A stretch of 64,000 nucleotides of DNA from an uncultured Gemmatimonadota bacterium (lineage in GTDB: Bacteria > JAAXHH01), in assembly GCA_951812955.1 (NCBI GenBank), contig OX638340.1:448001-512000 (forward strand), written 5' to 3'. Each line of letters starts with the position of its first letter. Positions within the stretch are counted from its first letter, which is position 1. Below the pieces are notes generated by a model. That model saw only the letters and a list, made by a program, of their open reading frames with translations, searched no databases and had not been told where the DNA came from. Positions 2,353-53,099 of the stretch are shown one piece after another. The translations under genes were made by a program, and so were the position numbers.

Positions 2353-2355
2353 GGG

Positions 2356-17701: not shown

Positions 17702-17709
17702 ACGGGATC

Positions 17710-19389: not shown

Positions 19390-19420
19390 AAAACAAGACG
19401 GACCATCGCGGAAGACCAAC

Positions 19421-21088: not shown

Positions 21089-21211
21089 GGCACGCCTTCC
21101 GCGAGTCGCCTGAAACCAACCAAAAAGACCTGTGCGAGTGTATTCCCGGAACGTATTATAATGAAGCCGAGATCACTTTTCCAAGAGTATATATCAGGAG
21201 GAGATGCACAT

Positions 21212-24945: not shown

Positions 24946-27036
24946 ATGGAAAGCAATCCACTGCTGAACTGGAACGACCTGCCCTCCTTCGACCAGATCG
25001 AAATCGGTCATATCGAACCGGGCATCCATGCGGTGCTTGAACGATGCGAACGGTCCGTAGTCCGTCTCGAGGAAACAGCGCCGTGCACCTGGCACGCGCT
25101 CATGGACCCGCTCGAGAAAATAGAAGACGACCTGGGACGCACATGGGGCATCGTGTCCCACCTCCACGGGGTGAAGAACTCACCTGAACTGCGGGAGGTC
25201 TACGACCCCCTGCTTGCTGAAGTGGTCAAGTTCAGCAACCGGCTCGGCCAAAGCGGACCCCTGTACCAGGCGTTCTGCGCCTTGCGGGACAGTGACGAAG
25301 CAAAGCAATTCGAACCCGCGCAGGAGCGTATACTGGCGTCGGCTATCCACGAAGCCGAGTTGAACGGCGTGGGGCTCGACGACGCGGGACGCGAACGCTA
25401 CAACGAGATCAGCGAACGGCTCGCGGAACTGAGCACGAAGTTTTCGAACAATGTCCTCGACGCCACCAAGGCCTACAGAATCACGCTGACAGAATCTGAA
25501 GAAGTCGACGGGCTTCCGGCTACCCTGCTCGAACTGGCAGCGGACACGGCCCGGCAGGAGGGACACGAACAGGCCACTTCGTCGGACGGTCCGTGGGTGC
25601 TCACGCTGGACTATCCCAGTTTCATGCCGTTCATGCAGCACAGCAAGCGACGGGACCTGCGGGAGCAAATGTACCGCGCCTTCGTTTCCAAGGCGTCGGA
25701 CGGACAGTGGGACAACCGGGATGTAGCCAGGGAGATCGTCGCCCTGAGGAACGACAAGTGCAGACTGCTCGGGTTTAATACCTTCGCGGAGTTGAGTCTC
25801 AGTCGGAAAATGGCGCCTGATGCGGGATCTGTGCGGGGCCTGCTCAACGAACTGAGCTCGGCGAGCCGCGGCGCCGCCAAACACGACATGGAGGCGCTCA
25901 AGGCGCTGGCAGGCGTCGAGAAAGACGGCGAACTGAGGCACTGGGACGTCCCCTACTGGTCGGAACGGCTTCGCGAGACGCGCTACGACCTGAAGGACGA
26001 AGAACTCAGACCCTATTTTCCGTTGCCCCGCGTGTTGAACGGATTGTTCGAACTCACGGAGCGGCTGTTCGAGGTGCGCCTGGAGGAGACGACCGGCGAA
26101 GCACCGGTATGGCATGAAGACGTACAGTACTTCCGGGTATACGACGATCGGAACGAACCCGTGGCGGGGTTCTACCTGGACCCGTACAGCCGTCCCGCGG
26201 AGAAGCAGGGCGGCGCGTGGATGGATACGCTGGTGGGCAGAAGCGCGGTCATGGCTTCCTCCGGACAGGCTGCCCGGCTGCCCGTGGCCTATATGATCTG
26301 CAACCAGGGTAAGCCCGTCGGCGGCAAACCCTCCCTCATGACGTTCCGGGAAGTGGAAACCCTTTTTCACGAGTTCGGCCACGCCCTCCAGCACATGTTG
26401 ACGAACATCGATTACGGCATGGCGTCCGGTATTTCCAACGTGGAATGGGACGCGGTGGAGATCGCCAGTCAGTTCATGGAAAACTGGTGTTACGACCGGG
26501 CGACGTTGAAAGGCCTGGCACGCCATTACGAGACGGACGAACCGCTGCCGGATGAAATCATCGATCGCCTGCTTGGCGCCAGGACGTTCCGGGAGGGCAG
26601 CAATACCCTCAGGCAGGTGAACTTCGGCCTGCTCGACATGGAGCTGCACGAAGGTTTCGATCCGGAGGGATCGGAGACCATCCTAGACGTGCAGCGCCGG
26701 ATCGATGCGCAGACGCTGATCCTGCCGTCGCTGGCGGAGGATCGGTTCTTCTGTTCGTTCTCCCACATTTTCGCGGGAGGTTACGCGGCAGGATACTATA
26801 GTTACAAGTGGTCGGAAGTGCTCAGTGCGGACGCCTTCTCCGCGTTCCAGGAAGCGGGTCTGGATAACGACGGGGAGATGCGTCGCCTGGGCCGCAGGTT
26901 CCGCGATACCATCCTCGCCCTCGGCGGCAGCCGGCATCCCATGGACGTCTTCAGAGATTTCCGCGGGCGGGAACCTACCACGGAAGCGCTGCTTCGCCAG
27001 GGCGGCCTTCTGGAGGCGGGCGGTGAAAGTCGCTGA
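24946..27036 (+). CDS. prlC: Oligopeptidase A (M3 family zinc metallopeptidase)
   Basis: 696 aa. HEFGHALQH zinc-binding motif. Length and overall architecture match PrlC/Dcp. Confidence 0.9.
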   Translation: MESNPLLNWNDLPSFDQIEIGHIEPGIHAVLERCERSVVRLEETAPCTWHALMDPLEKIEDDLGRTWGIVSHLHGVKNSPELREVYDPLLAEVVKFSNRLGQSGPLYQAFCALRDSDEAKQFEPAQERILASAIHEAELNGVGLDDAGRERYNEISERLAELSTKFSNNVLDATKAYRITLTESEEVDGLPATLLELAADTARQEGHEQATSSDGPWVLTLDYPSFMPFMQHSKRRDLREQMYRAFVSKASDGQWDNRDVAREIVALRNDKCRLLGFNTFAELSLSRKMAPDAGSVRGLLNELSSASRGAAKHDMEALKALAGVEKDGELRHWDVPYWSERLRETRYDLKDEELRPYFPLPRVLNGLFELTERLFEVRLEETTGEAPVWHEDVQYFRVYDDRNEPVAGFYLDPYSRPAEKQGGAWMDTLVGRSAVMASSGQAARLPVAYMICNQGKPVGGKPSLMTFREVETLFHEFGHALQHMLTNIDYGMASGISNVEWDAVEIASQFMENWCYDRATLKGLARHYETDEPLPDEIIDRLLGARTFREGSNTLRQVNFGLLDMELHEGFDPEGSETILDVQRRIDAQTLILPSLAEDRFFCSFSHIFAGGYAAGYYSYKWSEVLSADAFSAFQEAGLDNDGEMRRLGRRFRDTILALGGSRHPMDVFRDFRGREPTTEALLRQGGLLEAGGESR

Positions 27037-28206: not shown

Positions 28207-28974
28207 ATGAATCTCGATTTCCTGCTTGTATCCGCTACGAATATTGAACAGGAGTCGATCCGTGCATCGATGAAAGTCGACGGAACGGATCGGCCCCAGG
28301 GGCGACCGTGGCACCTAGGCTCGTTGTCCGGAAAGTCGGTGCTCCTGATCGAGGGCGGCGTGGGACAGGTCAATACGGCCTCGGCCCTGACCCTGGCGCT
28401 GACACGCCATGAACCCGCTGTCATCCTGCAATTCGGTGTGGGCGGCGCATACTTGCGGTCAGGTCTCCGCGTCGGCGACCTCGCCGTCGCCACAGAGGAA
28501 TGGTACGGTGACACCGGCATCGTGACACCGGAGGGCTGGATGGATATGGAGCAGATGGGGTTTCCCATGCTCGCCGGCCGTACGGCCGTCCACGGAAAGA
28601 CGCCAGAGGAGCCCCTGTACAACAGGATACCGCTCGACGCAGCGCGAACGGAGAACATCCGGCAATGCCTCGCATCCGGATTGGAAGCCGAATCAGCACA
28701 CCAGACCGTGGCCGGTTCCTTCGTCACCGTGCAGCAATGCAGCGGCGTCCAGTCGGTCGGCGATACGCTGGCCGCCCGTTATGACGGAATATGTGAGAAC
28801 ATGGAAGGCGCGGCGGCAGCTCATGTAGCCGTGGCGAACGGCATTCCCTTTGTGGAAATCCGCGGCATCAGCAACCGGGTGGTCGACCGAGACCTGTCCG
28901 GCTGGGATCTGCCCCTGGCAATCCGCCGCTGCCAGCAGGCGGTGAAACTGATCATGGAACAGGGAGTCCAATGA
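28207..28974 (+). CDS. mqnB: Futalosine hydrolase (MTA/SAH-nucleosidase family), menaquinone biosynthesis via the futalosine pathway
   Basis: PNP_UDP_1 family motifs (the GVGGAY region; ENMEGAAAAHVAVANGIPFVEIRGISNRV resembles the MTAN EMEGAA block). Called MqnB because it sits immediately next to mqnD. Confidence 0.7.
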   Translation: MNLDFLLVSATNIEQESIRASMKVDGTDRPQGRPWHLGSLSGKSVLLIEGGVGQVNTASALTLALTRHEPAVILQFGVGGAYLRSGLRVGDLAVATEEWYGDTGIVTPEGWMDMEQMGFPMLAGRTAVHGKTPEEPLYNRIPLDAARTENIRQCLASGLEAESAHQTVAGSFVTVQQCSGVQSVGDTLAARYDGICENMEGAAAAHVAVANGIPFVEIRGISNRVVDRDLSGWDLPLAIRRCQQAVKLIMEQGVQ

Positions 28975-29048
28975 CTGGGCGCGCGCTTAGCGGCTCTTTT
29001 CCAGGATATGTACTGCGTCTTCGATCCCGCATGTAAACAGGTAGCATC

Positions 29049-29876
29049 ATGACACCCCTTTCACTCGGGTACTCTCCCTGTCCGAACGATACGTTCATCT
29101 TCTGTGCCTTGACCCAGGGCAGGATTCCCGATGCGCCTCCTTGCCGTGAGGTATTGGAAGATATCGAGTCCCTGAATACCCTCGCTCTTGAGCGGAAACT
29201 GGACCTGACGAAAATTTCCTTTCACGCCCTGGCCCACCTCAGGGACCATTACGTCCTGCTCCGGTCCGGTGGGGCGCTGGGCCGGGGATGCGGCCCCCTG
29301 GTGGTTTCGAGAGAACCGTTGTCGCCGGAACGGTTGAAGGGAAAGAAAATCGCGCTGCCCGGACGCCTGACCACGGCGGCACTGCTAATGAGGCTTTTCG
29401 ATCCTGCCCTGGATCGACTGGTCTACCTTCCATTCGACGAGATCATGCCGGCCTGCGAACGCGGTGACGTCGACGCCGGGGTGATCATCCACGAAAGCCG
29501 GTTTACTTTCGCAGCATACGGCCTCTCGCAAGTGATCGACCTCGGAGCCTGGTGGGAGGAAGAGACCGGTCACCCGATACCCCTGGGAGGGATTCTCGCG
29601 CGGAGGGACCTGGGACGTTCGATGCACGAACGGCTCGACCGGTCGATACGATCGAGCATCGAATTCGCCTATGCCCATCCCTGTGAAGTCAGGCCCTATA
29701 TCAGGCGCTACGCCCAGGAAATGGATGAAACGGTCATGCAGCAACACATCGATCTCTACGTGAATGAGTACTCCCTGCAGTATGGAGAGGACGGGGAAGC
29801 TGCTATTCACGACCTGTACGCACGCGCCGAGGAAGCCGGTATCGTGCCTGCGTCGGGTCATTCACTGTACGAGTGA
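29049..29876 (+). CDS. mqnD: 1,4-dihydroxy-6-naphthoate synthase (MqnD)
   Basis: The N-terminus LSLGYSPCPNDTFIFCAL is the characteristic MqnD (PF02621) start. 275 aa. Confidence 0.8.
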   Translation: MTPLSLGYSPCPNDTFIFCALTQGRIPDAPPCREVLEDIESLNTLALERKLDLTKISFHALAHLRDHYVLLRSGGALGRGCGPLVVSREPLSPERLKGKKIALPGRLTTAALLMRLFDPALDRLVYLPFDEIMPACERGDVDAGVIIHESRFTFAAYGLSQVIDLGAWWEEETGHPIPLGGILARRDLGRSMHERLDRSIRSSIEFAYAHPCEVRPYIRRYAQEMDETVMQQHIDLYVNEYSLQYGEDGEAAIHDLYARAEEAGIVPASGHSLYE

Positions 29877-29953
29877 CGGCGCTTGCGCCAAGGGAAACCC
29901 GAGACGGTAATCCAGGTCTTGCGGGTGATCCGATATTATCGAAAGGAAGCAAC

Positions 29954-30766
29954 ATGCGAATACTGATCATGACGGACATGGAAGGGGTCAGCGGCATCGT
30001 GGCCTGGGACCAGGTAAACGGCGGCAAGCCCATGTACGAGGAGGGCAGGCGGCTGTATACAGAGGAGATCAACGCCGCCGTTCGGGGCGCACGGGCTGCG
30101 GGGGCAACGGAGATCGTGGTGGTCGACTGTCACGGCGCCGGGGGAGACTGGACCTTCAATTCGCTGGTGCCCGAGTTACTCGATCCCGGATGTGAATGGG
30201 TCGCGAAGCATCCCTGGTCGCGTTACACGGAGATGTTTGAAACGGGATGCGACGCCGCGCTTTTCGTCGGCATGCACGCCCGGGCGAACACCCCCGACGG
30301 CGTGATGTGTCACACGATCTCCACCACGGGCTGGCGCAGTTTGCATTTCAATGACGACGAGGTGGGTGAAGTCGGTATCAACGCCGCCCTGTGCGGTCAC
30401 TACGGGGTTCCCGTGCTGCTGGTCACCGGCGACGAGGCCGTTTGCCGGGAATCCCGGGAACTCCTGGGCGAGAATCTGCCGGTCGTGGCCGTGAAACGGG
30501 GTCTTTCAAGGTACTCGGCCAGGCAGATTCCCCCGGTGCGGGCTCGACAGATGATCGAGGACGGAACGCGGCAGGCGCTTCAGGACATGCCGAATATCAA
30601 TCCATACGTCCCAACGGCGCCCACGAAGATCACCATCGAATTGGACACCGTGGACAACGCATCACATCACAGGGGCAGGCAAGGAGTGTCGTTTCCCGAC
30701 CCCCTGACCGTCGTCAGCGAGGGCCGGGACTGGATGGAAGCCTGGAATCAGATCTGGGGCTGGTAG
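29954..30766 (+). CDS. Peptidase M55 family D-aminopeptidase (DppA-like)
   Basis: Start at MRILIMTDMEGVSGI (AAGGAAG upstream), the hallmark M55 N-terminus. Confidence 0.8.
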   Translation: MRILIMTDMEGVSGIVAWDQVNGGKPMYEEGRRLYTEEINAAVRGARAAGATEIVVVDCHGAGGDWTFNSLVPELLDPGCEWVAKHPWSRYTEMFETGCDAALFVGMHARANTPDGVMCHTISTTGWRSLHFNDDEVGEVGINAALCGHYGVPVLLVTGDEAVCRESRELLGENLPVVAVKRGLSRYSARQIPPVRARQMIEDGTRQALQDMPNINPYVPTAPTKITIELDTVDNASHHRGRQGVSFPDPLTVVSEGRDWMEAWNQIWGW

Positions 30767-30834: not shown

Positions 30835-31653
30835 CTACAGCTGTTCCATCAGGTTACGGACGAACCGCAGGTCCGAACGGGCGAGATCGACGACCGTGTC
30901 CACGGGTTCTCCCCCATATTCACTATGCATGGTGACGGGCCCGTCGAATCCCTGGGCCTTCAGCGTGGCAAGGGTCGTTTTCCAGTCTCCGAATCCCGTA
31001 CCAAGACGGACCACGTCGACCTCCCACCGCCTCTCGCCGTCCCGGATCCGCTGCACACGTGCGAGGTCCTTGAAGGACATGACGGAAAGGTATTCCCTGA
31101 CGATGTTGAGCGCCATGTCGATCGGCTCCCCGCAGATGGACAGGTGTCCCACGTCCGCGAATACGCCGACGTGTGCGGGATCGAATCCCTGTACCACGTG
31201 CATGACTGCGGACGAATTCAGGCCCATGGAGTGCCCCGAATGGTTGTGTACGACCGTCTTTACACCCGTTTTCTCCGATAGGCGTTGAAATCCGTCCAGT
31301 TCCTTCCGCGCACGGTCCAGTTCCGTCCAGTAATCCGACCCCGGCGACCAGTGCCAGTACCCCAGCTTGATGTGCTTTACTCCGTTCTCGCCGCAGGCCT
31401 GGTAGTATTTCTCCGCGTAATCCAGCGTGGCCGTGGTGAAATCCCCCGGCGCGGTCACCAGTGGAATGGAAAGTCCAGCGTCTGAAAGCACCCGCGCGGC
31501 TTTCGGAAGGGCCCGGTCTATGTTGCCGGGATTCACCGGATAGCCGTCGCGCACGCACAGATCGGCGCCGGAAACGCCCACGCTCTGGACTTTCTCCGCT
31601 ATTTCCGATATAGTCAGGCCCTCGAGATGCTTTGTGAACATGATGAACTGCAT
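30835..31653 (-). CDS. Sugar phosphate isomerase/epimerase (xylose isomerase-like TIM barrel)
   Basis: 272 aa. AP-endonuclease-2/xylose-isomerase-like TIM-barrel pattern (HNHSGHSMG..., E/D metal ligands). Confidence 0.85.
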   Translation of the reverse strand: MQFIMFTKHLEGLTISEIAEKVQSVGVSGADLCVRDGYPVNPGNIDRALPKAARVLSDAGLSIPLVTAPGDFTTATLDYAEKYYQACGENGVKHIKLGYWHWSPGSDYWTELDRARKELDGFQRLSEKTGVKTVVHNHSGHSMGLNSSAVMHVVQGFDPAHVGVFADVGHLSICGEPIDMALNIVREYLSVMSFKDLARVQRIRDGERRWEVDVVRLGTGFGDWKTTLATLKAQGFDGPVTMHSEYGGEPVDTVVDLARSDLRFVRNLMEQL

Positions 31654-31784: not shown

Positions 31785-33770
31785 TCAATACGATTCCCAT
31801 CGATGGGGTTGGTCCGGGAACCAGGCCAGGTCGACCCCCATGGCGACAAGTTGCCAGAACAGATAAGCGAGCAGGACGCCAATAAACATCCGTCGGACCT
31901 TCTGGTAAAGTGCCGGACCTCCAATGCGGAATACGATGGTCTGGACCAGCCACGCCAGGAAAATCGGCAAAAACGCGCTTCGCACCGGGGCGGACATGAC
32001 GACCACCATGCCTATGGGATGGAGCGGCCACCACGGCAGGAGAATCCTTCCGGCCAGGAGCACGAACATCATTACAACGCCGCTCCCGAAAAACAGTACT
32101 TCGAGTTCATTGATCCGGGTCGCGTTGTTGACCCAGGTCACGATCAGATCGTAAAACTGGTTGCCCCGCGAGGTGCCCAGGTCGGTCCGCAGGCTCTGGG
32201 CACCGTAAGTGTTTCCGGCGTAGATCAGATATCCGATGGAAGCCGTGGCACTCAGGCAGAACGCCGCGGCCACGCTGGCGAAGAGGTGCTTTGCGGAGGG
32301 CTGCCGGCGGGAAACTCCATTCTCTGTTTTGTTAATGTACTGTGCCTGCATGCGCTGCCGCCACTGTGATTTGAGCCAGGCCACGTGGGATGTGCCAATC
32401 ATGGTGAAGGTGCGCCAGTTGCGCGCGAACCCGTTGGCCATGCCCAGTGTCGTCAAATCGCCGTGGCTGATCTGGGACGAACCGACGATGGCGATGGAGA
32501 ACTGGTGGCTGTTGATGGGCAGATCGAGCGTCACCACGCCCGTTTCGGCCACCACGCGCGCCATGGCGATATAGAAGATGAAGAGGAGCGTGATGAACAG
32601 GGCCATGATCGGCAGGGACAGACCGGCGGCGTACAGCCAGCACACGATGAAGGACATGCCAAGCAGGAATCCGAAGACGGCGGTCCGATAGGAGAACAGC
32701 TCTTCGGCGTCATCCAGCCGGCTGTTTCGGCCCAGCGCGTGCCGCCAGACTTCTTTCAGATGCCTACGGGCCATCCAGAGACCGAAGAGGACGAAGGTCA
32801 CCAGCCCGGCGATCGACTGGATACCTGCCAGGCCCCCGTGGATGATGGTTCCGGAGGTGGAACCGATGCCGACCATGTTGAGCGTACCCTCCTGGAGCAC
32901 GTAAAAGACCAGGAAGAACCACATGCTGAACAGGACGTCCCGGTTTACGAAGATCAGCAGGCAGAAGACGAAAACGTTCATCTGAAAGTTGAGCCCGGGA
33001 AAAGCGGGATCGAGGGTAAGAACCTGGGAATTCTCCGCCATGATTGGGAACGGGGGCCACGCACCCCAGAATGAGATGATGTTACAGATCATGAAAAGCG
33101 ACATGACCACCGCACCGGACAGGGTCCAGCGGCTGATGCCGTCTGACTTTCCTTCGCCCAGTGAGATCAGGTGCAGGCCCACTTCTCCCAGGGGAAACTG
33201 GAGGCGTTCGTGTTCGACCCACTGTTTCCTGAGCATTACTACAATGCACGCGCCGACAAAAAGCAGGACTAGAATGAAGGAACCCCACCAGAACAGAGGG
33301 GACAGCCAGGCGCCCCAGGGGATGGACTGGCCGGACTGAAGTCCTTCGTAGAACACCCTTACCGCTGCCCGGTCACTGAGGACCAGCCATTCTGGCAGAT
33401 AAGGAAAGAAGATGGATTCCCAGGCATTTTCCGGTGAAGCGAAGTAGAACGGCGCGGTGATCACGACGAGCAGGTACTTGGTCATGGCCTGGTCGGGCAC
33501 CGTGGAGGCGATCCAGCCCATGGCGAAGATGACGATCATTTCATAGAAAGAAAGGGCCCAGGCGGGACGTATCCGACCGATTAAAACGTTGGGCAGCAGT
33601 ACGCAGAACAGGAACGGGACGAGGAACACCGGTGGGAGATGGGTCGCTGCCGGTTCGATTCCGATCTGGTTGGCGGCGTATTCTCCCGTGAAACCGATGA
33701 ATATCGAAAGCGCGGCCCCGATGAGGACCGCGCGGAAGGATCGGATATACTGAAGTATAATCGTTGTCAT
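31785..33770 (-). CDS. Large polytopic membrane protein of an unrecognised family (paralog of 60949..62931)
   Basis: 661 aa with at least 14 hydrophobic segments. It shares FYFASPENAWE, LRKQWVEHERLQFPL, FGLWMARRH, ELFSYRTAV, RVVAETG, LDLPINS, TRNWRT, WPLHPIG and LYQKVRRMFIGVLLAYL with the second copy. Confidence 0.8.
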   Translation of the reverse strand: MTTIILQYIRSFRAVLIGAALSIFIGFTGEYAANQIGIEPAATHLPPVFLVPFLFCVLLPNVLIGRIRPAWALSFYEMIVIFAMGWIASTVPDQAMTKYLLVVITAPFYFASPENAWESIFFPYLPEWLVLSDRAAVRVFYEGLQSGQSIPWGAWLSPLFWWGSFILVLLFVGACIVVMLRKQWVEHERLQFPLGEVGLHLISLGEGKSDGISRWTLSGAVVMSLFMICNIISFWGAWPPFPIMAENSQVLTLDPAFPGLNFQMNVFVFCLLIFVNRDVLFSMWFFLVFYVLQEGTLNMVGIGSTSGTIIHGGLAGIQSIAGLVTFVLFGLWMARRHLKEVWRHALGRNSRLDDAEELFSYRTAVFGFLLGMSFIVCWLYAAGLSLPIMALFITLLFIFYIAMARVVAETGVVTLDLPINSHQFSIAIVGSSQISHGDLTTLGMANGFARNWRTFTMIGTSHVAWLKSQWRQRMQAQYINKTENGVSRRQPSAKHLFASVAAAFCLSATASIGYLIYAGNTYGAQSLRTDLGTSRGNQFYDLIVTWVNNATRINELEVLFFGSGVVMMFVLLAGRILLPWWPLHPIGMVVVMSAPVRSAFLPIFLAWLVQTIVFRIGGPALYQKVRRMFIGVLLAYLFWQLVAMGVDLAWFPDQPHRWESY

Positions 33771-33889: not shown

Positions 33890-35296
33890 TCAGGACCACA
33901 CGGTCAGCCCCATGACGAGATATACGACACCTGTGAGCACGGCGGCGATCATCGCATAAGGGATCTGCGTTCTGACGTGATCGATATGGTCGGATGCGGC
34001 GCCTGTCGAGGCGAGGATGGAGGTGTCAGAGAGCGGAGAGCAGTGATCGCCGAAGACCCCGCCGCCGGCCACGGCCGCTATGGTCGCGTATACGATGTCG
34101 GTCAATACGTCCCCCGAATATACCAGGGCCACGGGCACCGCGATCGGCAGCATGATGGCAAAGGTACCCCAGGAAGTTCCGGTGGAAAAGGCCATCACGG
34201 CCGCCAGCACGTAGGCGCACAAGGGGAGCATGGACGGGGTGAGGAAATCCCTCGAAATCGATACCATGTAGTCGGCCGTGCCCATGTCTTTGCTCAGCTG
34301 GTTGATGGTATAGGCGAAAGCCAGGATCATAATGGCCGGCATGATCCCCTTGATACCCGTCATCGCCGTGTCCATGATGTCGTTTAGCTGAATGCCCTGT
34401 ATACGAATCGAAATACCCAGGAAAATCACGACGGCGAGATAGGCTTCGAGCGTCTTCGCGGACCCGGTTAGAATGAACGAGCCCAGGACGATGACGATAA
34501 TCAGGATGACCGGCAGGATGAAGTTCAGGAACAGGCGCGGCTTGATTTCCGGGAACATCGGGGTCTCGGTCAGTTCCCGTCCGATGAGCGGTACCGCCCC
34601 GTCTCTGAGCACCTTGCCTTCCTTCAAAGCCCTGCGTTCCGCTTTCTTCATGGGACCGAATTCGGGGACCAGCCCGGCGGAGAACAGACCGACCAGAATT
34701 ACCGCCGCGAAGGCATAGATATTGTAGGGAATGGAATGTATGAAGGCGTTCAACGCATCGCCGGGATTGGCTATGGGGCCCATGCCGATGGTGAGTCCCG
34801 ATATGTAGATCGCCCATCCCGTGAAGGGCATGAGCACGATGACCGGGGCCGAGGTGGAGTCTGCGATATAGGCCAGCTTCTCCCTGGAAATCCGCGCCTT
34901 GTCGGCCAGGCTCCGCATCGTGGTCCCGACGAACAACGGGCTGAAGTAATCGCTGAAGAAGACGAACATGCCCAGCACCCACGTCCAGAGCTGCACGCCC
35001 TTGCGCGACAGCTGTCGGTACGCCACCCACTGGGTAAACGTCTGGATGGCGCCGGTTCGGATGAAAAAGGCGATCATGATCCCGATGCAGATCTCGAGAA
35101 GGAATACCCAGGAGAAACTGGTGTTTCCGATCGCGTTGATCATCAACTCGGAAAACCCCAGGGGACCCTGACCCGATATCAGGACGCCGACCAGGCAGGC
35201 CACCGCCAGGGAATACACGGCGTTCCGGGTCGTGAAGGCCAGCACGATGGCAAGGGCCGGTGGCACGATGGAGAGGATGCCGAGGTTTGTTTCCAT
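33890..35296 (-). CDS. Na+/H+ antiporter NhaC family transporter
   Basis: 468 aa, multi-TM, with NhaC-family conserved regions (YIADSTSAPVIVLMPFTGWAIY; FSTGTSWGTFAIMLPIAVP). Confidence 0.85.
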   Translation of the reverse strand: METNLGILSIVPPALAIVLAFTTRNAVYSLAVACLVGVLISGQGPLGFSELMINAIGNTSFSWVFLLEICIGIMIAFFIRTGAIQTFTQWVAYRQLSRKGVQLWTWVLGMFVFFSDYFSPLFVGTTMRSLADKARISREKLAYIADSTSAPVIVLMPFTGWAIYISGLTIGMGPIANPGDALNAFIHSIPYNIYAFAAVILVGLFSAGLVPEFGPMKKAERRALKEGKVLRDGAVPLIGRELTETPMFPEIKPRLFLNFILPVILIIVIVLGSFILTGSAKTLEAYLAVVIFLGISIRIQGIQLNDIMDTAMTGIKGIMPAIMILAFAYTINQLSKDMGTADYMVSISRDFLTPSMLPLCAYVLAAVMAFSTGTSWGTFAIMLPIAVPVALVYSGDVLTDIVYATIAAVAGGGVFGDHCSPLSDTSILASTGAASDHIDHVRTQIPYAMIAAVLTGVVYLVMGLTVWS

Positions 35297-35467: not shown

Positions 35468-36265
35468 ATGGAACACCTCAGCTACATGCTGATCGATCCC
35501 CCAGCTCGATGGGGCGGGAGTATCGACGATACCTTCGGTTTCATAAGAAACAGCGGATATACCGGCGTGGAACTTAACCTCACACCGGAACTGGTGAGCC
35601 GGCTGGATGAAATCGAACGCGCTGCCCGCGGAAATCAACTGCGCGTTGTTTCCCTGCTCACGGGTGTGGCATACGAGGACGGGCTCTGTCTCAGCTCCCC
35701 AGATGAATCAATCCGCGAAATGACCGTCGCCCGTCTGGTGGAGAACCTGGAGACCGCGGAACGGTTCAACGCCATACTCGTGGTCGGATTGCTTCAGGGA
35801 CTGCGGTCCGATGAACCGGACCCGGATGTCGCCAACGAACGGATCGTCTCCTGCCTGCAGCTTGTTGGAAGGGAAGCGGAATCGAAAAGTATAGACATTG
35901 TGATCGAGCCGGTAAACCACCTTCAAGTGGGGTTCAATCACAGCGTGGGCGAGGTCCGTAAACTGATCCGCACCATCGGGTCGAGCGCTTTTCATCCCAT
36001 GGTCGATACGATTCACATGAATATCGAAGAGACCTCTCTCGTCAAGCCGATCCAAGACTGCGGCGCCAGTCTCAGGCACGTGCATCTCTGTGAAAGCCAC
36101 GGCGGCCTGCCGGGAACCGGCCGAATCGACTTCGCGGAAGTACTCCATGCCCTGAAAGGCATAAACTATCCGCATTTTGCATCGGTGAAGGTCTACCGAA
36201 AGGCCGGGTTGCGGGAAGCGGTGGAGCGGAGTATGGCTTACTTCAGGGGCTTGCGGTCGGGATAG
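35468..36265 (+). CDS. Sugar phosphate isomerase/epimerase (xylose isomerase-like TIM barrel)
   Basis: 265 aa with a xylose-isomerase-like TIM-barrel pattern (IVIEPVNH, HVHLCESHGG). Confidence 0.85.
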   Translation: MEHLSYMLIDPPARWGGSIDDTFGFIRNSGYTGVELNLTPELVSRLDEIERAARGNQLRVVSLLTGVAYEDGLCLSSPDESIREMTVARLVENLETAERFNAILVVGLLQGLRSDEPDPDVANERIVSCLQLVGREAESKSIDIVIEPVNHLQVGFNHSVGEVRKLIRTIGSSAFHPMVDTIHMNIEETSLVKPIQDCGASLRHVHLCESHGGLPGTGRIDFAEVLHALKGINYPHFASVKVYRKAGLREAVERSMAYFRGLRSG

Positions 36266-36393
36266 GCTTGCTGCCAGTGGCTTGCGGTCGGGATAGGCTT
36301 GCTGCCGGTGAATCGGGATAGGTGGGCCTCTCCGTAAGGGCCATTTCGGCTTTTGTGGATGACACGTCTTCAGGGCCATTCCGGCTTTTGCGG
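36248..36393. repeat. Two short tandem direct-repeat blocks at the junction of convergent genes
   Basis: A 31-nt unit ggcttgcggtcgggataggcttgctgcc(a/g)gtg in about 2.4 copies (36248..36322), overlapping the stop of the upstream gene. Then gggccatt(t/c)cggcttttg(t/c)gg twice, 35 nt apart (36338..36393). Confidence 0.6.
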
Positions 36394-37386
36394 GTGGCCG
36401 GTGCGGATGGATGCCAACCCCGCTTCGCATACCGCCACGACGCGCGCGCCGATTCGTGCCGGGATCGGGTTTTCCATTTTTCCGTCGAGCGTGTCCAGGA
36501 AGTCCACGACGGACCGGCCCCAGCCATGGCCGCCCACGGCGGCATCGTCCGAGGCATTGGGTAGTACGATCGGTTCCTTCCCGCGGCGGTACAGCTTGCC
36601 ATTCCATAGCGTCCCCTCGGTGCCATAGACGGCCAGCATGCCGCCTCCCATGCCTTCCCCCGAGCAGCCGCTGGTGACGAAAACCTTTCCGAGCACCCCG
36701 TTCTCGAATTTCAGCATGACGATATAGCAGTCGTCCGAGGGAAACTCGGGCACGCTCAGTTTGCTGCTGTAGGCGAAGACCTCGCCGACGGGCGAATCGA
36801 CTGTGGACAGGATGTTGTCTATGGGATGGCAGCCGCCGCCCAGGAGTATGTTCTGCGGGTTATCCCGGTCGATCCGCCACGGCGTGTGGCCCCGCCCGCC
36901 CGGATGGTAGATAGACCACATGTCGTGGATATAGTCGCCCTGGACAAAAAACACGTCGCCGATCTCACCCGATCGGGCTGCCATGGACATTTCCCGCCAG
37001 GGGTACATGTACCGGATAGTATGATCCGTCATCACCGTCCGGCCCGTCCGGTCGGCGGCGTCGATGATGCGGTGTGCGTCGGCGACGGTCGTGGCCAACG
37101 GCTTCTCCACGAGGGCGTGGGCGCCGAGTTCCAGCGCCATGACGGTCTGATCGGCGTGCAGGTGGTCCGGTCCGGCCACGGCGACGATGTCCGGCCGTGT
37201 TCTAGAGATCAATGTCCGAAGGTCGTCACCGGTAGCGGCATCGCGATAGAGCGACCTGGCCGCTGCAAGTTTCGCCTCGATGGGGTCGAAGAGGGCGGTA
37301 ACTCGGGCGCGGCCGCTTTGCTCGGCCACGTGCGCCACGTATTTGCCGGCGCTGCCGCAACCGCTCAGAAGTAAGGAATAGGACAT
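36370..37386 (-). CDS. Gfo/Idh/MocA family oxidoreductase
   Basis: 338 aa. N-terminal Rossmann region, an EKPLA motif, and the C-terminal GFO_IDH_MocA domain. Confidence 0.9.
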   Translation of the reverse strand: MSYSLLLSGCGSAGKYVAHVAEQSGRARVTALFDPIEAKLAAARSLYRDAATGDDLRTLISRTRPDIVAVAGPDHLHADQTVMALELGAHALVEKPLATTVADAHRIIDAADRTGRTVMTDHTIRYMYPWREMSMAARSGEIGDVFFVQGDYIHDMWSIYHPGGRGHTPWRIDRDNPQNILLGGGCHPIDNILSTVDSPVGEVFAYSSKLSVPEFPSDDCYIVMLKFENGVLGKVFVTSGCSGEGMGGGMLAVYGTEGTLWNGKLYRRGKEPIVLPNASDDAAVGGHGWGRSVVDFLDTLDGKMENPIPARIGARVVAVCEAGLASIRTGHPQKPEWP

Positions 37387-37413
37387 GTCAGTTATGGCCT
37401 CAACGAGCCGCGG

Positions 37414-38748
37414 TCACTTCATCTGCTCCAGCCTGGTCCGGTACTTGTCATACAGGTCGGTGTGCTTGCTGCTGATATCGACCGGCCGGCCCTGGATGAA
37501 GGCCCGTTCCACCTGGGTCATGATCTCGAGGGGGTCCCCGTCGGTCACGATCAGGGTGGCGTCCTTGCCCGTCTCCAGGGAACCGAGCCTGTCTTCCACC
37601 CCGAGGATACGCGCCGGATAGAGGGTGACGGATTTCAACGCCTCTTCCCTGGGCAGGCCGTAGGCCGCCGCGGTCGCGGCGTGGTAGGGCAGGTTCCGTA
37701 CGTTCGAACCGCCGCCGCCTTCGAGCCATACCCTGCGCTCGCCGATGCAGAAATCCAGGCCGGCTTCATAGAGTTTCAGGGCATTGGTGAACGGCGCGTC
37801 ATAGGCTTCCCAACGGCGAGCGGGCAGGTAATGCACGGCGCCGATGATCACAGGGATCGCGTTTTCCTTCAAGCGGTCCGCCACCCGCCATACGTCCGCC
37901 CCGCCGACCAGGACGATCTTGAGATCTTCGGCGAGGGCCCAGTCGATGGCGGCGTGGATCTGTTTTACTTCAGATGCGTGTACGAGAACGGGAAGTTCTT
38001 TCTTAAGCACCGGGATCATCGACTCCCAGCCGAGGTCGGAGGGATGAAACGGCCCGCCGGTGCGTTCGGCCTCCTTGGCGATCATGTATGCCCTGGCTTC
38101 GCGAAAGGCGTCGCGAAGTCTGGTAAGGGCTTCCCTGCGCGCTTCGACCTGCTTCTCCCGGCTGTCCGCACCGGGAAAATCGAATATGCGGTAGGATGGC
38201 CAGCGTACGTGAAGTCCCACCGTCGATTGCAGCGTCATTTCCTCAGTGGTCCAGCCATCCAGCGCGATAAGGCCGGAAAGCCCAGAGATCAGGCCGCCAC
38301 TGGGCATGGTCAGGGCGGTCAGTATCCCGTTCGCACGGGCAACAGGGAAGTACTCGCTGTCGGGATTCACGGCGGTAACCGCGCGGACGCTCGGGGTAAC
38401 GTCCCCGATTTCCACGTTGTCCTGGGTCGCCCGCACCGAGCTGATCTCGGTCAGTCCCAGGGTCGTCGGCGCGGCGATCAGCCCGGGATACACATGTTTC
38501 CCCGTAACGTCGATGACCAGCGTGTTTTCGGGCAGGGCCAGATCGGTCCCGATACCTGTTATAACGCCGGCATCAAAGAGCACCGTGGCGCCTTCGAGGA
38601 CAGCGCCGCTCACCGTATGCACGGTTCCGCCAGTCAGGGCGATGGGACGAGCCTGCGGCCCGGACGGTTTCTGCTTGGAAGCAGCCGCCTCGTGGACCAT
38701 GGGACCGGATGCGAGACCAGCAATCAACAATACAGCCATCGTTCGCAT
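37414..38748 (-). CDS. Amidohydrolase family protein (secreted metal-dependent hydrolase)
   Basis: Amidohydrolase fold motifs (GKHVYPGLIAAPTTLGL; the C-terminal D-loop region GKDATLIVTDGDPLE). The true start is uncertain because the 5' end holds a 36-bp tandem triplication with three in-frame ATGs (38748, 38784, 38820). The track ORF extends to 38892. Confidence 0.75.
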   Translation of the reverse strand: MRTMAVLLIAGLASGPMVHEAAASKQKPSGPQARPIALTGGTVHTVSGAVLEGATVLFDAGVITGIGTDLALPENTLVIDVTGKHVYPGLIAAPTTLGLTEISSVRATQDNVEIGDVTPSVRAVTAVNPDSEYFPVARANGILTALTMPSGGLISGLSGLIALDGWTTEEMTLQSTVGLHVRWPSYRIFDFPGADSREKQVEARREALTRLRDAFREARAYMIAKEAERTGGPFHPSDLGWESMIPVLKKELPVLVHASEVKQIHAAIDWALAEDLKIVLVGGADVWRVADRLKENAIPVIIGAVHYLPARRWEAYDAPFTNALKLYEAGLDFCIGERRVWLEGGGGSNVRNLPYHAATAAAYGLPREEALKSVTLYPARILGVEDRLGSLETGKDATLIVTDGDPLEIMTQVERAFIQGRPVDISSKHTDLYDKYRTRLEQMK

Positions 38749-38838
38749 CCAACAAGCGCCTGCGAGTACAGCCATTGTCCGCCTCCAACAAGCGCCTGCG
38801 AGTACAGCCATCGTTCGATTCCAACAGGCGCTGGAAGA
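38731..38838. repeat. 36-bp tandem triplication within the 5' coding end of the amidohydrolase gene
   Basis: Three 36-nt units (tacagccatcgttcgcatccaacaagcgcctgcgag and two near-identical copies). They encode RTMAVLAGACW(R/M) three times, each with an in-frame ATG. Confidence 0.8.
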
Positions 38839-38900
38839 CTTCGCCGAACGCCGCGTCCCCTGGATTGTCCGGGGCAATATCACCATCTCCAACCTCCATT

Positions 38901-38940
38901 CGCCGGGAAACCGGCCTGTCCGCCGGGAAACCGGCCTGTC
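38901..38940. repeat. Perfect 20-nt tandem duplication, each copy forming a 5-bp stem with a GAAA/UUUC tetraloop, between two amidohydrolase genes
   Basis: cgccgggaaaccggcctgtc appears twice. GCCGG-GAAA-CCGGC is a perfect hairpin. It lies immediately downstream of the stop at 38946. Confidence 0.7.
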
Positions 38941-38945
38941 CGGTC

Positions 38946-41936
38946 CTACGCCTCCGGCGACGCTTCCCCGGTCTCGGACGAACCTTCGTCCGCATCGGGC
39001 GACTTGAGCAGTTTCTGAATCAGTCTCGTTCTTTCTTCTTCCACTTCTTTCCTCATCTGCCTGTCTTCATCGATATCGAAGTATCTTCTTCCGTCGATCC
39101 AGGTCTGTTCGCATTTCGTATACGTGGACAGGGGATGGCCGTTCCAGATCACAAAATCGGCGTCCTTGCCCGGCTCGAGCGATCCGACCCAGGGATCGAT
39201 GGCCAGTTGCTTCGCCGCGTTGAGCGTGACGAACTTCAGGGCTTCTACCTCGTCGACCCCGCCGTATTTCACCGCCTTTGCCGCCTCGGTGTTCAGTCGC
39301 CGGGCGAGTTCATCGCTGTCGGAGTTGAAGGTGACCAGTACGCCCGCGTCGTGCATCAAGGCCCCGTTGTAGGGAATGGCGTCGTAGGCTTCCACCTTGA
39401 ACGCCCACCAGTCGCTGAAGGCAGAAGCACCCGCGCCGTGGGCGGCCAGTTCGGGTGCGACCTTGTACCCCTCCAGCACGTGTTGAAAGGTGCCGATCGT
39501 AAAACCGAAATCTTCGGCCACCCGAAGGAGCATCAGGATCTCGTCCTGCCGATAGGAATGACAGTGGACGAGACGTTCGCCGGCCAGGATCTCCTGCAGT
39601 GTTTCCAGTTCGAGGTCGCGCCGGGGAGGGACGACGCCGGATTTATCTTCCAGAGCGTTGTACCGGTCCCACGACTGTTGATATTCCCGGGCCGCGCGGA
39701 AACGGTCGCGGATGATCTGTTCGACCCCCATGCGGGTCTGTGGATAGCGGTCGCTGAGAATGCGCCAGTTGCTGCGCTTGACGTTCTCGCCCAGGGCGAA
39801 CTTGATCCCCGCCTTGGCTTCGGAGAATTTGAGTTCCTCGGGGCCTGTACCCCATCTCAGCTTGATGACCTGGTTCTTGCCGCCAATCGGATTGGCCGAC
39901 CCGTGCAATACATTGGCCACGGTGAGACCGCCGGCCAGCTCTCGGTACATGGCGATATCGTAGCTGTCGATGACGTCTCCGATACCCACCTCGGCGGTCA
40001 CGGCCTGCGTGCCCTCGTTGATGCCCTCCATGATGGCCGTGTGCGAATGGGCGTCGATGATGCCGGGCGTGACGTGCTTGCCGGTACCGTCGATTTCTAC
40101 GGCATCCTCTGGCGCTTCGAGGTTCGTACCCACCTCGTCGATTTTCCCCGCGCGGATCAGCACGTCCGCGTTTTCCAGTTTGCCCCGCTCGTCCAGCGTC
40201 CACACCGTGGCGTTCCGCACGACGAAGTATTCCGGCTGCGCTGGCGCGCTTTCTCTACCGAAGGCTCCGGGTGGATACAGCGCCGGCGGTTCGTCTGCCG
40301 CGGCGGACTTCGGAATCTCCAGCGTTACCGCTTCATGCTCCGCGATGCGTTCCGCTGACCAGCTCACGCTTTCGCCGCCGGGGCGGACCCCCCGGCCCGA
40401 GATCCGGTCTCCCTGGACAGAACCCGAAAAACGCCAAACACCGGCTTCACCCAGCGCTTCATGCTCAATGCTGAATGCGATTCGGGTATCGTCCAGGTCC
40501 ATGCGGACCGTCTTGATCGTGGTACCGTCTTTGTCGATGGTGCCCTTCGGCGAACCCGCCGATCCTTCAATGGCCAGCGACAGGCTGTCTCCCTGCAGGA
40601 CGATCAGCCACGTCCCCCGTGGATCGACTACCGGGCGTGGGGTGACCACGTGACGGTTACCCGCGACCCACACATCCTGCACGCGCACGCCCTCAGCGAA
40701 CAGGGGGCCGTCGGTAATCGTCATGTTGGCCAGTTTCCCGGACTCCAGCGTACCGAGCTGGCGGCTAATGCCAAGCATGGATGCAGGGGTCGTAGTCAAC
40801 GAGGCCAGCGCGGCTTCATAATCCAGCCCGTGCTCGATCGCTTCCCGCACCCTTTCGTGAAAGTCGGCGCTTTTACCCAGCCTTGTACTGCTCAGCGCAA
40901 TGGGGATCCCGGCCCGGTGCAATTGGCCCGGATTCCCGGGCGCCAGGTCCCAGTGCCGCAGTTCTTCCAACGTGACGTCCACGGCGTCTTCCGGCGTGGA
41001 TACGGAGAGATCTTCCGACCGTGGAAAATCGAGCGGCAGGATGACCGGCGCGCCCACTTCGCGCACCGCGTCCAGCATGCGGTATTCATGGCCGCTGCCC
41101 CGGACGAGGAATCGAAGTCCGAATTCATCCGCCAGACTGGCGGCACGCAGAAAGGCGTGGTCGTCATCGACACTCATGAGAACGGCCTGGCCGCGGGCGA
41201 TCACCCCGTCCAGCGCCGCCAGCGCGTCATTGTCCTCCGGGCGTTCCTGCTGGGGATTCTCTGCGAAAGCCGCATGGGCGTCCCGGTACCATTGCGCGTC
41301 CAGGATCGTCTGCCGTATGAGGGCCGCGACGCCCATCATGGAGGCCGGATAGGTGCGGTTCCGGTTTCTCTTCATGCGCAGATGCTGGAACACATCGCGC
41401 TTCAGTATGTTCTCGTTGGGCGATCCGGAACCCAGGTTCACCACCGCGCTGCTGCCAGAGAAAACTCCCCGATCGGCTACGACCATGGCCGCCGCGAAAC
41501 CGGATTTACGCAGCCGGGCGAGTTCCTGCTCACTGACGCGGTATGCTTCGCCGGCGGCGCGTTCAGGACGGACACCGGGATTCCAGTGGGTCGATCCCGT
41601 GGACTTCTCCGCTTCCTCTTCCGGCAGGCCGGCCTGTGTGAACATCTCGATCAATCCGGGATAAATGGTCTTGCCGGAATAGTCCCACCGCTGGGCGTCC
41701 GGTGGAATGTCGACGGACGCTCCGGCTTCCACGATCAGCCCGTCCCGGACGATCACGACGCCCCTGTTGATCACGAGATCGGGCCGGACGTAAATCCGGG
41801 CGTCCTCCAGGGCGTGGACGCGTGAAGGATTCTCCCGCAGTCCCGTCTGCGGCGCCGTCTGCTGGGCTTCCGCGGCAAGGGTGACCGCCCCGGACAGCAG
41901 CATGGCCTGGATCATGATCCAACAGGTTTTCAGCAT
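38946..41936 (-). CDS. Large two-domain amidohydrolase family protein with signal peptide
   Basis: Start at MLKTCWIMIQAMLLSGAVTLAAEA (ATG at 41936, with a perfect AGGAGG 6 nt upstream). Two amidohydrolase modules (GKTIYPGLIEMFTQAGL...; ...GIIDAHSHTAIMEG...). About 996 aa. Confidence 0.85.
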   Translation of the reverse strand: MLKTCWIMIQAMLLSGAVTLAAEAQQTAPQTGLRENPSRVHALEDARIYVRPDLVINRGVVIVRDGLIVEAGASVDIPPDAQRWDYSGKTIYPGLIEMFTQAGLPEEEAEKSTGSTHWNPGVRPERAAGEAYRVSEQELARLRKSGFAAAMVVADRGVFSGSSAVVNLGSGSPNENILKRDVFQHLRMKRNRNRTYPASMMGVAALIRQTILDAQWYRDAHAAFAENPQQERPEDNDALAALDGVIARGQAVLMSVDDDHAFLRAASLADEFGLRFLVRGSGHEYRMLDAVREVGAPVILPLDFPRSEDLSVSTPEDAVDVTLEELRHWDLAPGNPGQLHRAGIPIALSSTRLGKSADFHERVREAIEHGLDYEAALASLTTTPASMLGISRQLGTLESGKLANMTITDGPLFAEGVRVQDVWVAGNRHVVTPRPVVDPRGTWLIVLQGDSLSLAIEGSAGSPKGTIDKDGTTIKTVRMDLDDTRIAFSIEHEALGEAGVWRFSGSVQGDRISGRGVRPGGESVSWSAERIAEHEAVTLEIPKSAAADEPPALYPPGAFGRESAPAQPEYFVVRNATVWTLDERGKLENADVLIRAGKIDEVGTNLEAPEDAVEIDGTGKHVTPGIIDAHSHTAIMEGINEGTQAVTAEVGIGDVIDSYDIAMYRELAGGLTVANVLHGSANPIGGKNQVIKLRWGTGPEELKFSEAKAGIKFALGENVKRSNWRILSDRYPQTRMGVEQIIRDRFRAAREYQQSWDRYNALEDKSGVVPPRRDLELETLQEILAGERLVHCHSYRQDEILMLLRVAEDFGFTIGTFQHVLEGYKVAPELAAHGAGASAFSDWWAFKVEAYDAIPYNGALMHDAGVLVTFNSDSDELARRLNTEAAKAVKYGGVDEVEALKFVTLNAAKQLAIDPWVGSLEPGKDADFVIWNGHPLSTYTKCEQTWIDGRRYFDIDEDRQMRKEVEEERTRLIQKLLKSPDADEGSSETGEASPEA

Positions 41937-42008
41937 GATTCTCCTCCTGCAGAAAAGATTCAGATACTGATTAAAACCCAAAGCAGCACAATAACTTACT
42001 AACATTCA

Positions 42009-42583: not shown

Positions 42584-43603
42584 TCATTGCCTGGTGGTGC
42601 AGGTTGAGATCCAGCGCGTAACCGGCCGCGACCCTACGCCTCTGCCCGAACCCAGCCACGGCGGAATGATGGCGGAATGTCCGCCGGCCGATCCTCCAGC
42701 GAACATGATCCATATGCCATCCCGGTCCGGCGTCAGCGTGACGGGTTCTTCGGGACCCAGGTCGTCGTGCCTGCCCGTTGCCTGGATTTCACGTCCCGTG
42801 GCCGCCGTGCGTTCAAAAAGCGCTTCACGGATCATTTCACGAGTCCACCCGGCCCGGCTGAATACCGATCGGTGTTCCGGGCAGATGATGAATACGATGG
42901 CTGCGCCGGCGTAGTTGGTCGTCCGGGCGACGCGCGCAAACGAGTCGATCAGGCCATCGGGCTGGTCGTTAACGTGGTCGGCTACGGAGTGGGGTGCTTC
43001 GGCGGCAAGGACCGTGACGGCGTTTTTGTCCGGGGAAACGCCCAGTTCTTCGCCCTGGGTCGGCCATCCGGCGCAACGGGCTTCCGGCAGACAGTACGCA
43101 ATGCGTCCGGCATGGGCTATCGTCGCCCGGTCCAGGTCACCCGGCACACTGCCGACACCGTTTCGTATGACCAGGTTCAAGGCACGCCCCAGCGTCAGAT
43201 TGGACCGGTTGCCCGCACCGAGCACGGCCGTTTCCGGATTGAAACGCAACGACTCCACAACGGGACCGTGGACGATCGCCAGGGGGGCGGCGCCGCCAGT
43301 GCTGGCCGACGGTCCGACGATATTGAACGCCGGGTCCAGGATGGCCTCGACCGTGGCAAGGACGACAGGGAACAGCGAATCAGTGCATCCCGCCATAACC
43401 GCGTTCGCCGCCACCAGTTCGGCTGAGATGGATCTGTTCCGCTCAGGCACCGTGCCGATTTCACGGTCCGGTTCGATGCCGTGCGCATCGAGCATCCGAT
43501 CAATGCGATCGCGGACGGGCGGCACCACGGGAAGGCCATCCGACCAGCCCCGGTCGAAGGCGTATTCTATGGCATCAATTTCGGATTCGACCTGGTGGGC
43601 CAT
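42584..43603 (-). CDS. Hypothetical protein (unrecognised family) between the cytochrome c and the selenoprotein gene
   Basis: About 340 aa from the ATG at 43603 (the track ORF extends to 43702 but overlaps the upstream gene). No motif recognised. It starts 8 nt after the cytochrome c stop. Confidence 0.55.
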   Translation of the reverse strand: MAHQVESEIDAIEYAFDRGWSDGLPVVPPVRDRIDRMLDAHGIEPDREIGTVPERNRSISAELVAANAVMAGCTDSLFPVVLATVEAILDPAFNIVGPSASTGGAAPLAIVHGPVVESLRFNPETAVLGAGNRSNLTLGRALNLVIRNGVGSVPGDLDRATIAHAGRIAYCLPEARCAGWPTQGEELGVSPDKNAVTVLAAEAPHSVADHVNDQPDGLIDSFARVARTTNYAGAAIVFIICPEHRSVFSRAGWTREMIREALFERTAATGREIQATGRHDDLGPEEPVTLTPDRDGIWIMFAGGSAGGHSAIIPPWLGSGRGVGSRPVTRWISTCTTRQ

Positions 43604-43611
43604 TAGCAGCG

Positions 43612-44004
43612 TTACCTGCCGTAGTAGTTTTCCAGATAGGTAAGAATGGTTTCTTCGGTTTTCGAATCGAATTTCTTCAATCCCTTTTCCGCCTGCATCC
43701 AACGGATAGCATCAAGCCACTCCGCGCGGTTCGCCCGATAGGAACGGATGATCTGGGTAGGATGGCATTGGGCGCATTCCCTTTCCACGACGGGGTAGCC
43801 GTCGCCCATGATCAGCCGGGTCCGGTGGTTCAGTTCCAGGCCCGTTCGCGGGTCGAACATCGTTACGGGCTTGGCCGCCTCGGCCCTGGCATTGGCCTGT
43901 GCGACTTTCGATCGCTCCGCTTCGTAGTAGATCAGACCGACTACCAGGACATCCAGGATGATGACGAAGGCAAACTGGCCAAGTACGCGCAGAAACGAAT
44001 TCAT
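43612..44004 (-). CDS. Putative membrane-anchored mono-heme c-type cytochrome
   Basis: 130 aa. N-terminal TM helix (FAFVIILDVLVVGLIYY) and a single CAQCH heme-binding motif. AGGAG 7 nt upstream of the ATG. Confidence 0.6.
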   Translation of the reverse strand: MNSFLRVLGQFAFVIILDVLVVGLIYYEAERSKVAQANARAEAAKPVTMFDPRTGLELNHRTRLIMGDGYPVVERECAQCHPTQIIRSYRANRAEWLDAIRWMQAEKGLKKFDSKTEETILTYLENYYGR

Positions 44005-53050: not shown

Positions 53051-53099
53051 GATATGTGTACAAACAGGAGCAAGGACCCGGCGGGCTGCCTTGCCGAAA

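Follow-up and report, generated by a model that had tools for sequence, protein, structure and literature searches.

Two paralogous DUF6785/DUF6784 membrane proteins with a predicted OPT/Yellow-Stripe fold and no family-wide TIM-barrel partner

Transporters of the OPT/Yellow-Stripe (YSL) kind are important in plant iron nutrition and in the uptake of peptides and glutathione by fungi. To our knowledge only one structure has been obtained for them, and we know of no bacterial member that is well characterised. Here we describe two paralogous membrane proteins, A and B, which are encoded in a stretch of 64,000 nucleotides (the window) from an uncultured Gemmatimonadota bacterium (assembly GCA_951812955.1, contig OX638340.1, positions 448,001 to 512,000) and for which the OPT/YSL fold is predicted.

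The closest described protein is HvYS1 of barley, a proton-coupled symporter for which an elevator mechanism was proposed by its authors (PMC9691689), who argued by analogy with other elevator transporters. Its substrate-binding "YS core" domain contains an inverted repeat, helical hairpins and a discontinuous helix, its scaffold domain dimerises, and its protonation sites are Asp446, Asp490 and Asp494 (PMC9691689).

Membership of A and B in the DUF6785/DUF6784 family

The two genes and the domains of their products are as follows.

31785..33770, minus strand: paralog A, 661 amino acids, DUF6785 at residues 11-468 and DUF6784 at residues 559-647; predicted OPT/YSL-fold transporter
60949..62931, minus strand: paralog B, 660 amino acids, DUF6785 at residues 28-522 and DUF6784 at residues 559-646; predicted OPT/YSL-fold transporter

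As shown by BLASTP, A and B are 35% identical (54% positives) over 655 aligned residues, with an E value of 2e-119. This is far above chance and confirms an earlier, sequence-only reading of the window, which had proposed that the two are homologous along their whole length. That reading had placed both open reading frames (ORFs) at exactly these coordinates, and its view of A and B as polytopic membrane proteins is supported. All of the motif blocks that it had quoted are present in the A/B alignment (PFY[FY]A[SN]PEN.W, LRKQWVEHERL.FPL, FGLWMARRH, E[LF]FSYRTAV, RVVAETG..LDLP.NS, RNWRT, WPLHP[IV]G and LY[QR]K..FIG[VI]L), except that A has ARNWRT where TRNWRT had been given. No third copy was found in the window when A and B were used as phmmer queries against all ORFs of at least 100 amino acids. 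A 652-amino-acid ORF at 3519..5477 was considered as a third paralog and rejected, the ORF being an SBP_bac_5 solute-binding protein.

The family had been regarded as unrecognised, which does not hold. Both proteins are full-length members of the Pfam family DUF6785+DUF6784, which is catalogued though uncharacterised. PF20581 (DUF6785) scored 335 bits for A and 387 bits for B against a gathering threshold of 25 bits, and PF20580 (DUF6784), at the C-terminus around residues 559-647, scored 61 and 72 bits against a threshold of 26.4 bits. Pfam thus places A and B; no NCBIfam model matched either protein in a scan at E <= 1. Hundreds of homologs were found by the searches, and every one examined had both domains, as did 55 of 55 diverse relatives. 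Named homologs are annotated as "hypothetical" or "DUF6785 family protein"; their sources are metagenome-assembled genomes (MAGs) of Latescibacteria, Zixibacteria and "Gemmatimonadota", and many of these MAGs were obtained from sponges. We found no paper that mentions DUF6785, DUF6784, PF20581 or PF20580, and the titles and abstracts of sponge and Latescibacterota papers contained nothing on the family.

An exhaustive profile search gave 7,294 clusters (50% identity) at E <= 1e-3 and 2,599 at E <= 1e-30, and a genome scan gave at least 594 confirmed matches in species-representative genomes. Our locus analyses cover the best 80 of these at least 594 genomic loci (numbered with L; individual family proteins are numbered with P), and nearly all of the loci kept come from Latescibacterota-type MAGs. 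A second DUF6785 copy was located within 10 kb in 25 of 76 loci, in several cases as a direct tandem, and several assemblies each supplied three or four of the best 80 loci. A protein 99% identical to B is encoded in L015 (JAPOOT010000161.1, "Gemmatimonadetes bacterium APA_bin_41"). Unusual architectures were seen in P0201, P0174, P0212 and P0217; in P0201, a protein of 2,120 amino acids, residues 1473-2109 make up the DUF6785 region. The family profile matched several proteins of 820-870 amino acids in two stretches, which suggests large insertions.

Predicted fold and proposed mode of transport

Structures were predicted with AlphaFold2 for B from an alignment of 47 sequences (pLDDT 89.9, pTM 0.88) and for A from an alignment of 55 sequences (pLDDT 87.8, pTM 0.88). 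A Foldseek comparison of the B model with the PDB returned two significant matches, both of them barley HvYS1 (7wst and 7wsr; E 2e-9, probability 1.0, TM 0.65/0.71), and all other matches had E > 0.1. The A model likewise matched HvYS1 and no other structure. The HvYS1-type three-dimensional fold, unique among solved structures, is the one that both models adopt, and the two Pfam entries, neither of which gives a function, would in the models cover one fold, which can be aligned with HvYS1 over its whole length. The comparison yields a confident match to a known kind of transporter at the fold level only. A transporter role, which the sequence-only reading had offered as one candidate, is supported as the best reading by the match of both models to HvYS1 alone.

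The most likely reading, in our view, is that both paralogs import solutes by secondary active transport and that they belong to a large prokaryotic branch of the OPT/Yellow-Stripe fold whose sequences are divergent. By analogy with HvYS1, each protomer would consist of a mobile core domain, which carries the sites for substrate and coupling ion, and a fixed scaffold domain, and H+ (or Na+) would drive transport through a movement of the elevator type. With the elevator-type transporters GltPh, NapA and CitS, A and B would have in common only this proposed mechanism of a mobile core and a fixed scaffold.

Several observations weigh against this interpretation. The OPT family proper (PF03169) presumably shares its fold with A and B, YS1 being a PF03169 member, but its defining sequence models are matched by neither A, B nor any of 55 relatives: PF03169 and the NCBIfam/TIGR OPT models, such as TIGR00728, gave no match to A or B at E <= 1, and PF03169 matched 0 of 55 diverse members at E <= 10 in a Pfam scan. 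HvYS1 was not retrieved from the PDB sequences by the family profile at E <= 10. With no match at the sequence level, the case for common ancestry with OPT is a structural one throughout, made on predicted models. An internal inverted repeat was not detected when the N-terminal and C-terminal halves were compared with hhalign (probability 0.35%); the non-significant alignment pairs T.RAV/PENRW with SYRTAV/RNWRT. No conserved counterpart of the HvYS1 disulfide pair Cys250-Cys671 was found, as the invariant and near-invariant columns of the 47- and 55-sequence alignments contain no Cys. The neighbourhoods of the family are too heterogeneous for a substrate to be identified, and some DUF6785 copies may lie outside any operon of catabolic genes.

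Compared with the barley and maize YS1 and YSL proteins (OPT superfamily; 7wsr/7wst; PMC9691689), which are from plants, the bacterial proteins A and B are only 10-11% identical and have no similarity at the level of hidden Markov models (HMMs). Their family has conserved no equivalent of the two cysteines by which the YS1 scaffold is pinned, and nothing around their genes points to metal-nicotianamine or phytosiderophore substrates. On the models, the relation of the family to OPT is at the fold or superfamily level only. Since they do not match PF03169, these proteins would be missed by surveys that define OPT by that model (e.g. bioRxiv 10.64898/2026.08.27.747422).

Near-invariant polar and charged residues were located in or beside predicted membrane helices in the family alignments. 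In B numbering they are E95; A129-x-x-E132-N133-x-W135; R200/Q202/W203/E207; R352/H354; E374/S377/Y378/R379; R422/A425/E426/G428; W580-P581-x-H583-P584; and D646/W649/F650/H655. Judged from their conservation, these residues are candidates for coupling and gating, with E95, E132, E374 and E426 as the candidate acidic residues for coupling. The last group lies in the C-terminal tail, where the YS1/YSL clade has a beta-strand dimer interface; in B the tail is conserved yet coil in the model. In addition, 38 residues are at least 90% conserved within the orthogroups of A and B yet differ between them, and 9 of the 38 lie at B 103-124, where the invariant ASPENRW motif follows immediately. Such clustering would be expected if the two orthogroups had diverged in substrate specificity.

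Being large and polytopic, with many polar and aromatic residues that are invariant, the proteins might also be membrane-embedded enzymes, such as GT-C-type glycosyltransferases, acyltransferases or polymerases, and a TPR protein with a PMT_2-like domain adjoins some of the paralogs. We rejected the enzyme and GT-C readings on the fold and found no structural or sequence support for them; they retain hardly any credence.

TIM-barrel genes and the surroundings of A and B

Each paralog is adjoined on the same strand by a gene of the PF01261 family.

30835..31653, minus strand: TIM barrel A, PF01261 E 1.9e-16, 61 bits; 131 bp downstream of A
63051..63881, minus strand: TIM barrel B, PF01261 E 4.6e-30, 105.6 bits; 119 bp upstream of B

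Both products score above the gathering threshold of PF01261 (31.1 bits), in agreement with the sequence-only reading, which had seen a xylose-isomerase-like TIM-barrel gene beside each membrane protein. NCBIfam gave weak IolE/epimerase-like matches for TIM barrel A and weak QuiC/hydroxypyruvate-isomerase-like matches for TIM barrel B, and no equivalog-level assignment for either. That reading had gone further and proposed a conserved two-gene module with an invariant TIM-barrel partner. In its strict form this would be an obligate pair of the membrane protein and a dedicated sugar isomerase/epimerase, duplicated within the genome. The gene order is opposite in the two copies, with the TIM gene after A and before B. 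TIM barrels A and B have no BLASTP similarity to each other (E 0.16), and neither is similar by BLASTP to the third TIM barrel of the window; by this comparison A and B's barrels are unrelated beyond the superfamily level. Because the TIM barrels are dissimilar although the membrane proteins are 35% identical, the membrane-protein/TIM pair was not duplicated as a unit.

To locate TIM genes across the family, 99 full-length DUF6785 genes from the 80 loci were grouped into 33 clusters at 60% identity, and PF01261-like ORFs were found by a coordinate-based search of all ORFs; the HMM for it was built iteratively, starting from the three TIM barrels of the window. A TIM gene lay within 300 bp in 2 of 33 paralog clusters, those of A and B, and within about 2.3 kb in 4 of 33. 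An independent Pfam census (positions -2 to +2, one representative per cluster) found PF01261 in 2 of 107 neighbour proteins. Within the two clusters the adjacency is constant: the TIM gene is always downstream in the A cluster (5 of 5 loci) and always upstream in the B cluster (8 of 8 loci, at 86% identity or more). For A it is kept in the 58%-identity ortholog P0100 (L081/L082) and gone at 49-51% identity. For B it is already lost at 67% identity, where the context is GH4, a UxuA-like TIM at -2 on the other strand, BNR and MR_MLE, and at 56% identity, where the context is an esterase and GH95. A TIM gene stands at +2 in the 52%-identity relative P0034 and in cluster 8, and TIM genes are mildly enriched close to the family, at about 5% for positions +-1 and +-2 against about 1% at +-3 and beyond. 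PF01261 genes are common in this genome, with three in 64 kb. The adjacency seen in every A- and B-cluster locus and the mild enrichment speak for an obligate module; the 2 of 33 clusters, the reversed order, the dissimilar barrels and the early loss beside B make it quite improbable. The membrane-protein/TIM adjacency is orthogroup-specific synteny that is not conserved beyond the orthologs of A and B. The products of the TIM genes would act in pathways local to the A and B orthogroups; as partners of the membrane protein they are not obligate.

The surroundings of A, identified with Pfam, are the following.

33890..35296, minus strand: NhaC-type Na+/H+ antiporter family permease (PF03553 E 7e-50), 119 bp upstream of A on the same strand
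35468..42005: context island upstream of A, made up of the next four genes
35468..36265, plus strand: third TIM barrel
36370..37386, minus strand: GFO/IDH/MocA oxidoreductase
37414..38892, minus strand: amidohydrolase
38946..42005, minus strand: amidohydrolase
28207..30766, plus strand: convergent block beside TIM barrel A, syntenic with the A orthogroup, made up of the next three genes
28207..28974, plus strand: PNP_UDP_1 (MqnB-like)
29049..29876, plus strand: VitK2_biosynth (MqnA)
29873..30766, plus strand: peptidase M55 D-aminopeptidase

The order of NhaC and then DUF6785 recurs in L032, L035 and L041, and the whole string Amidohyd-Amidohyd-GFO-TIM-NhaC-DUF-TIM, conserved in the A cluster, is found in L032 and L041. 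Around P0100 in L081/L082 the convergent M55-MqnA-PNP arrangement recurs along with the TIM gene. A would serve the NhaC/TIM/GFO/amidohydrolase island.

The genes downstream of B, also assigned with Pfam, form a string on the same strand.

54321..60888, minus strand: string of genes downstream of B, made up of the next five genes
59908..60888, minus strand: luciferase-like monooxygenase (LLM), first downstream of B
58938..59750, minus strand: PhyH dioxygenase
56707..58938, minus strand: DMFA2_C-like protein
55865..56710, minus strand: metallophosphoesterase
54321..55769, minus strand: sulfatase

From B onward the genes are separated by gaps of 60 and 157 bp, overlaps of 1 and 4 nt and then a 95-bp gap. 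B had been said to head a tightly coupled, oxygenase-rich operon. The tight same-strand string with oxygenases is there, but the TIM gene precedes B, so B does not head it. The string is conserved in close relatives only (L001-L006, L013 and L015). B would serve the TIM/LLM/PhyH/DMFA2-like/phosphoesterase/sulfatase string. The DMFA2_C protein (743 amino acids) resembles the beta subunit of N,N-dimethylformamidase, with a weakly Laminin_G-like region at its N-terminus; at one end its coding sequence overlaps with PhyH and at the other with the metallophosphoesterase. Around the A and B loci, scans for promoters and terminators gave counts at or below shuffled expectation and are therefore uninformative on operon boundaries.

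Other features of the window were also noted. An Rfam scan of the window found no riboswitch, the only matches being two tRNA genes, at 52977..53051 and 53100..53173 (both minus strand), between FAA-hydrolase and APH-family kinase genes. Two Opp/Dpp-type ABC peptide uptake systems with SBP_bac_5 and BPD_transp_1 are encoded at 1279..7662 (minus strand; this one also with oligo_HPY ATPases) and 16712..20341 (plus strand). There is an M3 oligopeptidase at 24946..27036 in addition to the M55 D-aminopeptidase, and the region is rich in peptide-utilisation genes. A DUF2961 protein (21083..22300, plus strand, E 2e-97), of an uncharacterised family, lies between ABC permease and MFS transporter genes in a transport-rich stretch. 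The ORFs 49859..51640, 42584..43702 and 12954..14402 (all minus strand; 593, 372 and 482 amino acids) had no Pfam match at E <= 1e-4 and are putative genes.

Neighbourhoods across the family and their meaning

Peptidase genes are linked to several DUF6785 paralogs. A gene for peptidase M32 (carboxypeptidase Taq) or gamma-glutamyltranspeptidase is located immediately upstream of tandem DUF6785 pairs (L022:6423-11962 and L057:6337-12001; also L025, L065 and L075). A protein of about 1,570 amino acids, with PA, peptidase M28 and FtsX-like permease domains, is encoded between two DUF6785 genes at L063:11984-16693 and also in L064, L069, L070 and L074; related giants occur in L020 and L039, and the PA/M28/FtsX giant recurs beside four different DUF6785 paralog clusters. 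Other tightly linked neighbours are class-III aminotransferase, MR_MLE, alpha-L-fucosidase, FG-GAP/ASPIC and RGL11-like proteins and many TPR proteins. In the census of 107 neighbours there were 143 Pfam families, with TPR proteins the commonest (8).

The M32 and gamma-glutamyltranspeptidase contexts are of the peptide or glutathione type and fit an OPT-like function better than do the contexts of A and B in the window. Peptidases adjoin several paralogs (M32, gamma-glutamyltranspeptidase and M28/PA, and M55 near A), as would be expected of peptide importers like those of the OPT family proper, and these links are consistent with the classical OPT role in peptide uptake. Other DUF6785 paralogs differ from OPT proper in adjoining glycosidases and oxygenases, not peptidases, which suggests that they carry other substrates. 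Taken together, the contexts (M32, gamma-glutamyltranspeptidase, M28/PA, alpha-L-fucosidase, GH4, GH95, MR_MLE and aminotransferase) fit uptake that feeds catabolism.

The fold match itself is silent on the direction of transport. The OPT-like fold could be used for export or flipping, that is, for efflux of a metabolite or chelator or for translocation of lipid-linked or envelope precursors. The prevalence of TPR proteins among the neighbours, one of them with a PMT_2 glycosyltransferase-like domain, and the recurring FtsX-domain giants would suit an envelope or secretion role. However, the characterised OPT/YSL members are H+-coupled importers (PMC9691689 and general knowledge), and many contexts are tight sets of cytoplasmic catabolic enzymes and peptidases (M32, aminotransferase, MR_MLE, TIM, GFO and LLM). 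No biosynthetic cluster for a chelator or other exported product was seen with Pfam beside A or B. We therefore regard export or flipping as unlikely, and infer import.

The Latescibacterota, including sponge symbionts labelled Gemmatimonadota, have many paralogs per genome, each in a different catabolic neighbourhood. Under the importer interpretation, the difference in neighbourhood is the reason for proposing a different substrate for each paralog, which would import a different small organic compound for the cytoplasmic enzymes encoded alongside.

Further neighbours were recorded in individual loci. PhyH genes lie near many paralogs, also in L017, L021, L037, L040, L042, L068, L085 and L091. 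On a Tara Oceans MAG contig (L090:830-8989), two DUF6785 paralogs within 7 kb are interleaved with several PhyH genes and a sulfatase, and FmdA/AmdA amidase, PALP and GGT genes follow downstream. At L089:2295-3868, about 3 kb upstream of a DUF6785 gene, a CBASS-type defence pair consists of a CD-NTase (CD_NTase_C) gene and a gene for a Cap15-like effector, and adjoins genes for a HepT-like toxin and for a subunit of a type I restriction system; this placement is probably coincidental.

It was already known that the family is catalogued as two DUFs, and the fold predicted for it belongs to a known transporter superfamily. The new elements are that a large DUF family is assigned, from models, to the OPT/YSL architecture and that its paralogs have expanded massively in Latescibacterota. 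The supposed TIM-barrel partner was a tempting but wrong inference from guilt by association, which is now corrected. With about 7,300 clusters of a DUF family connected to the OPT/YSL fold, thousands of hypothetical membrane proteins acquire a functional hypothesis. The link would account for some of the unexplained uptake capacity in Latescibacterota and in sponge symbionts, whose genomes abound in catabolic islands with no obvious permease, and it makes small prokaryotic homologs available to structural and mechanistic studies.

More tentatively, and at somewhat less than even chances, the family of A and B would be the main multi-paralog system of organic-solute uptake in Latescibacterota/PAUC34f, sponge symbionts included, and a large, previously unlinked prokaryotic arm of the OPT/Yellow-Stripe superfamily with substrates well beyond peptides and metal chelates. 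Examples would be sugar derivatives, sulfated-glycan fragments and amides, handled by the products of adjacent TIM, GFO, PhyH, sulfatase and amidase genes. If this is true, the substrate range of the OPT fold would be wider, and the family would provide compact bacterial models for a poorly understood elevator mechanism.

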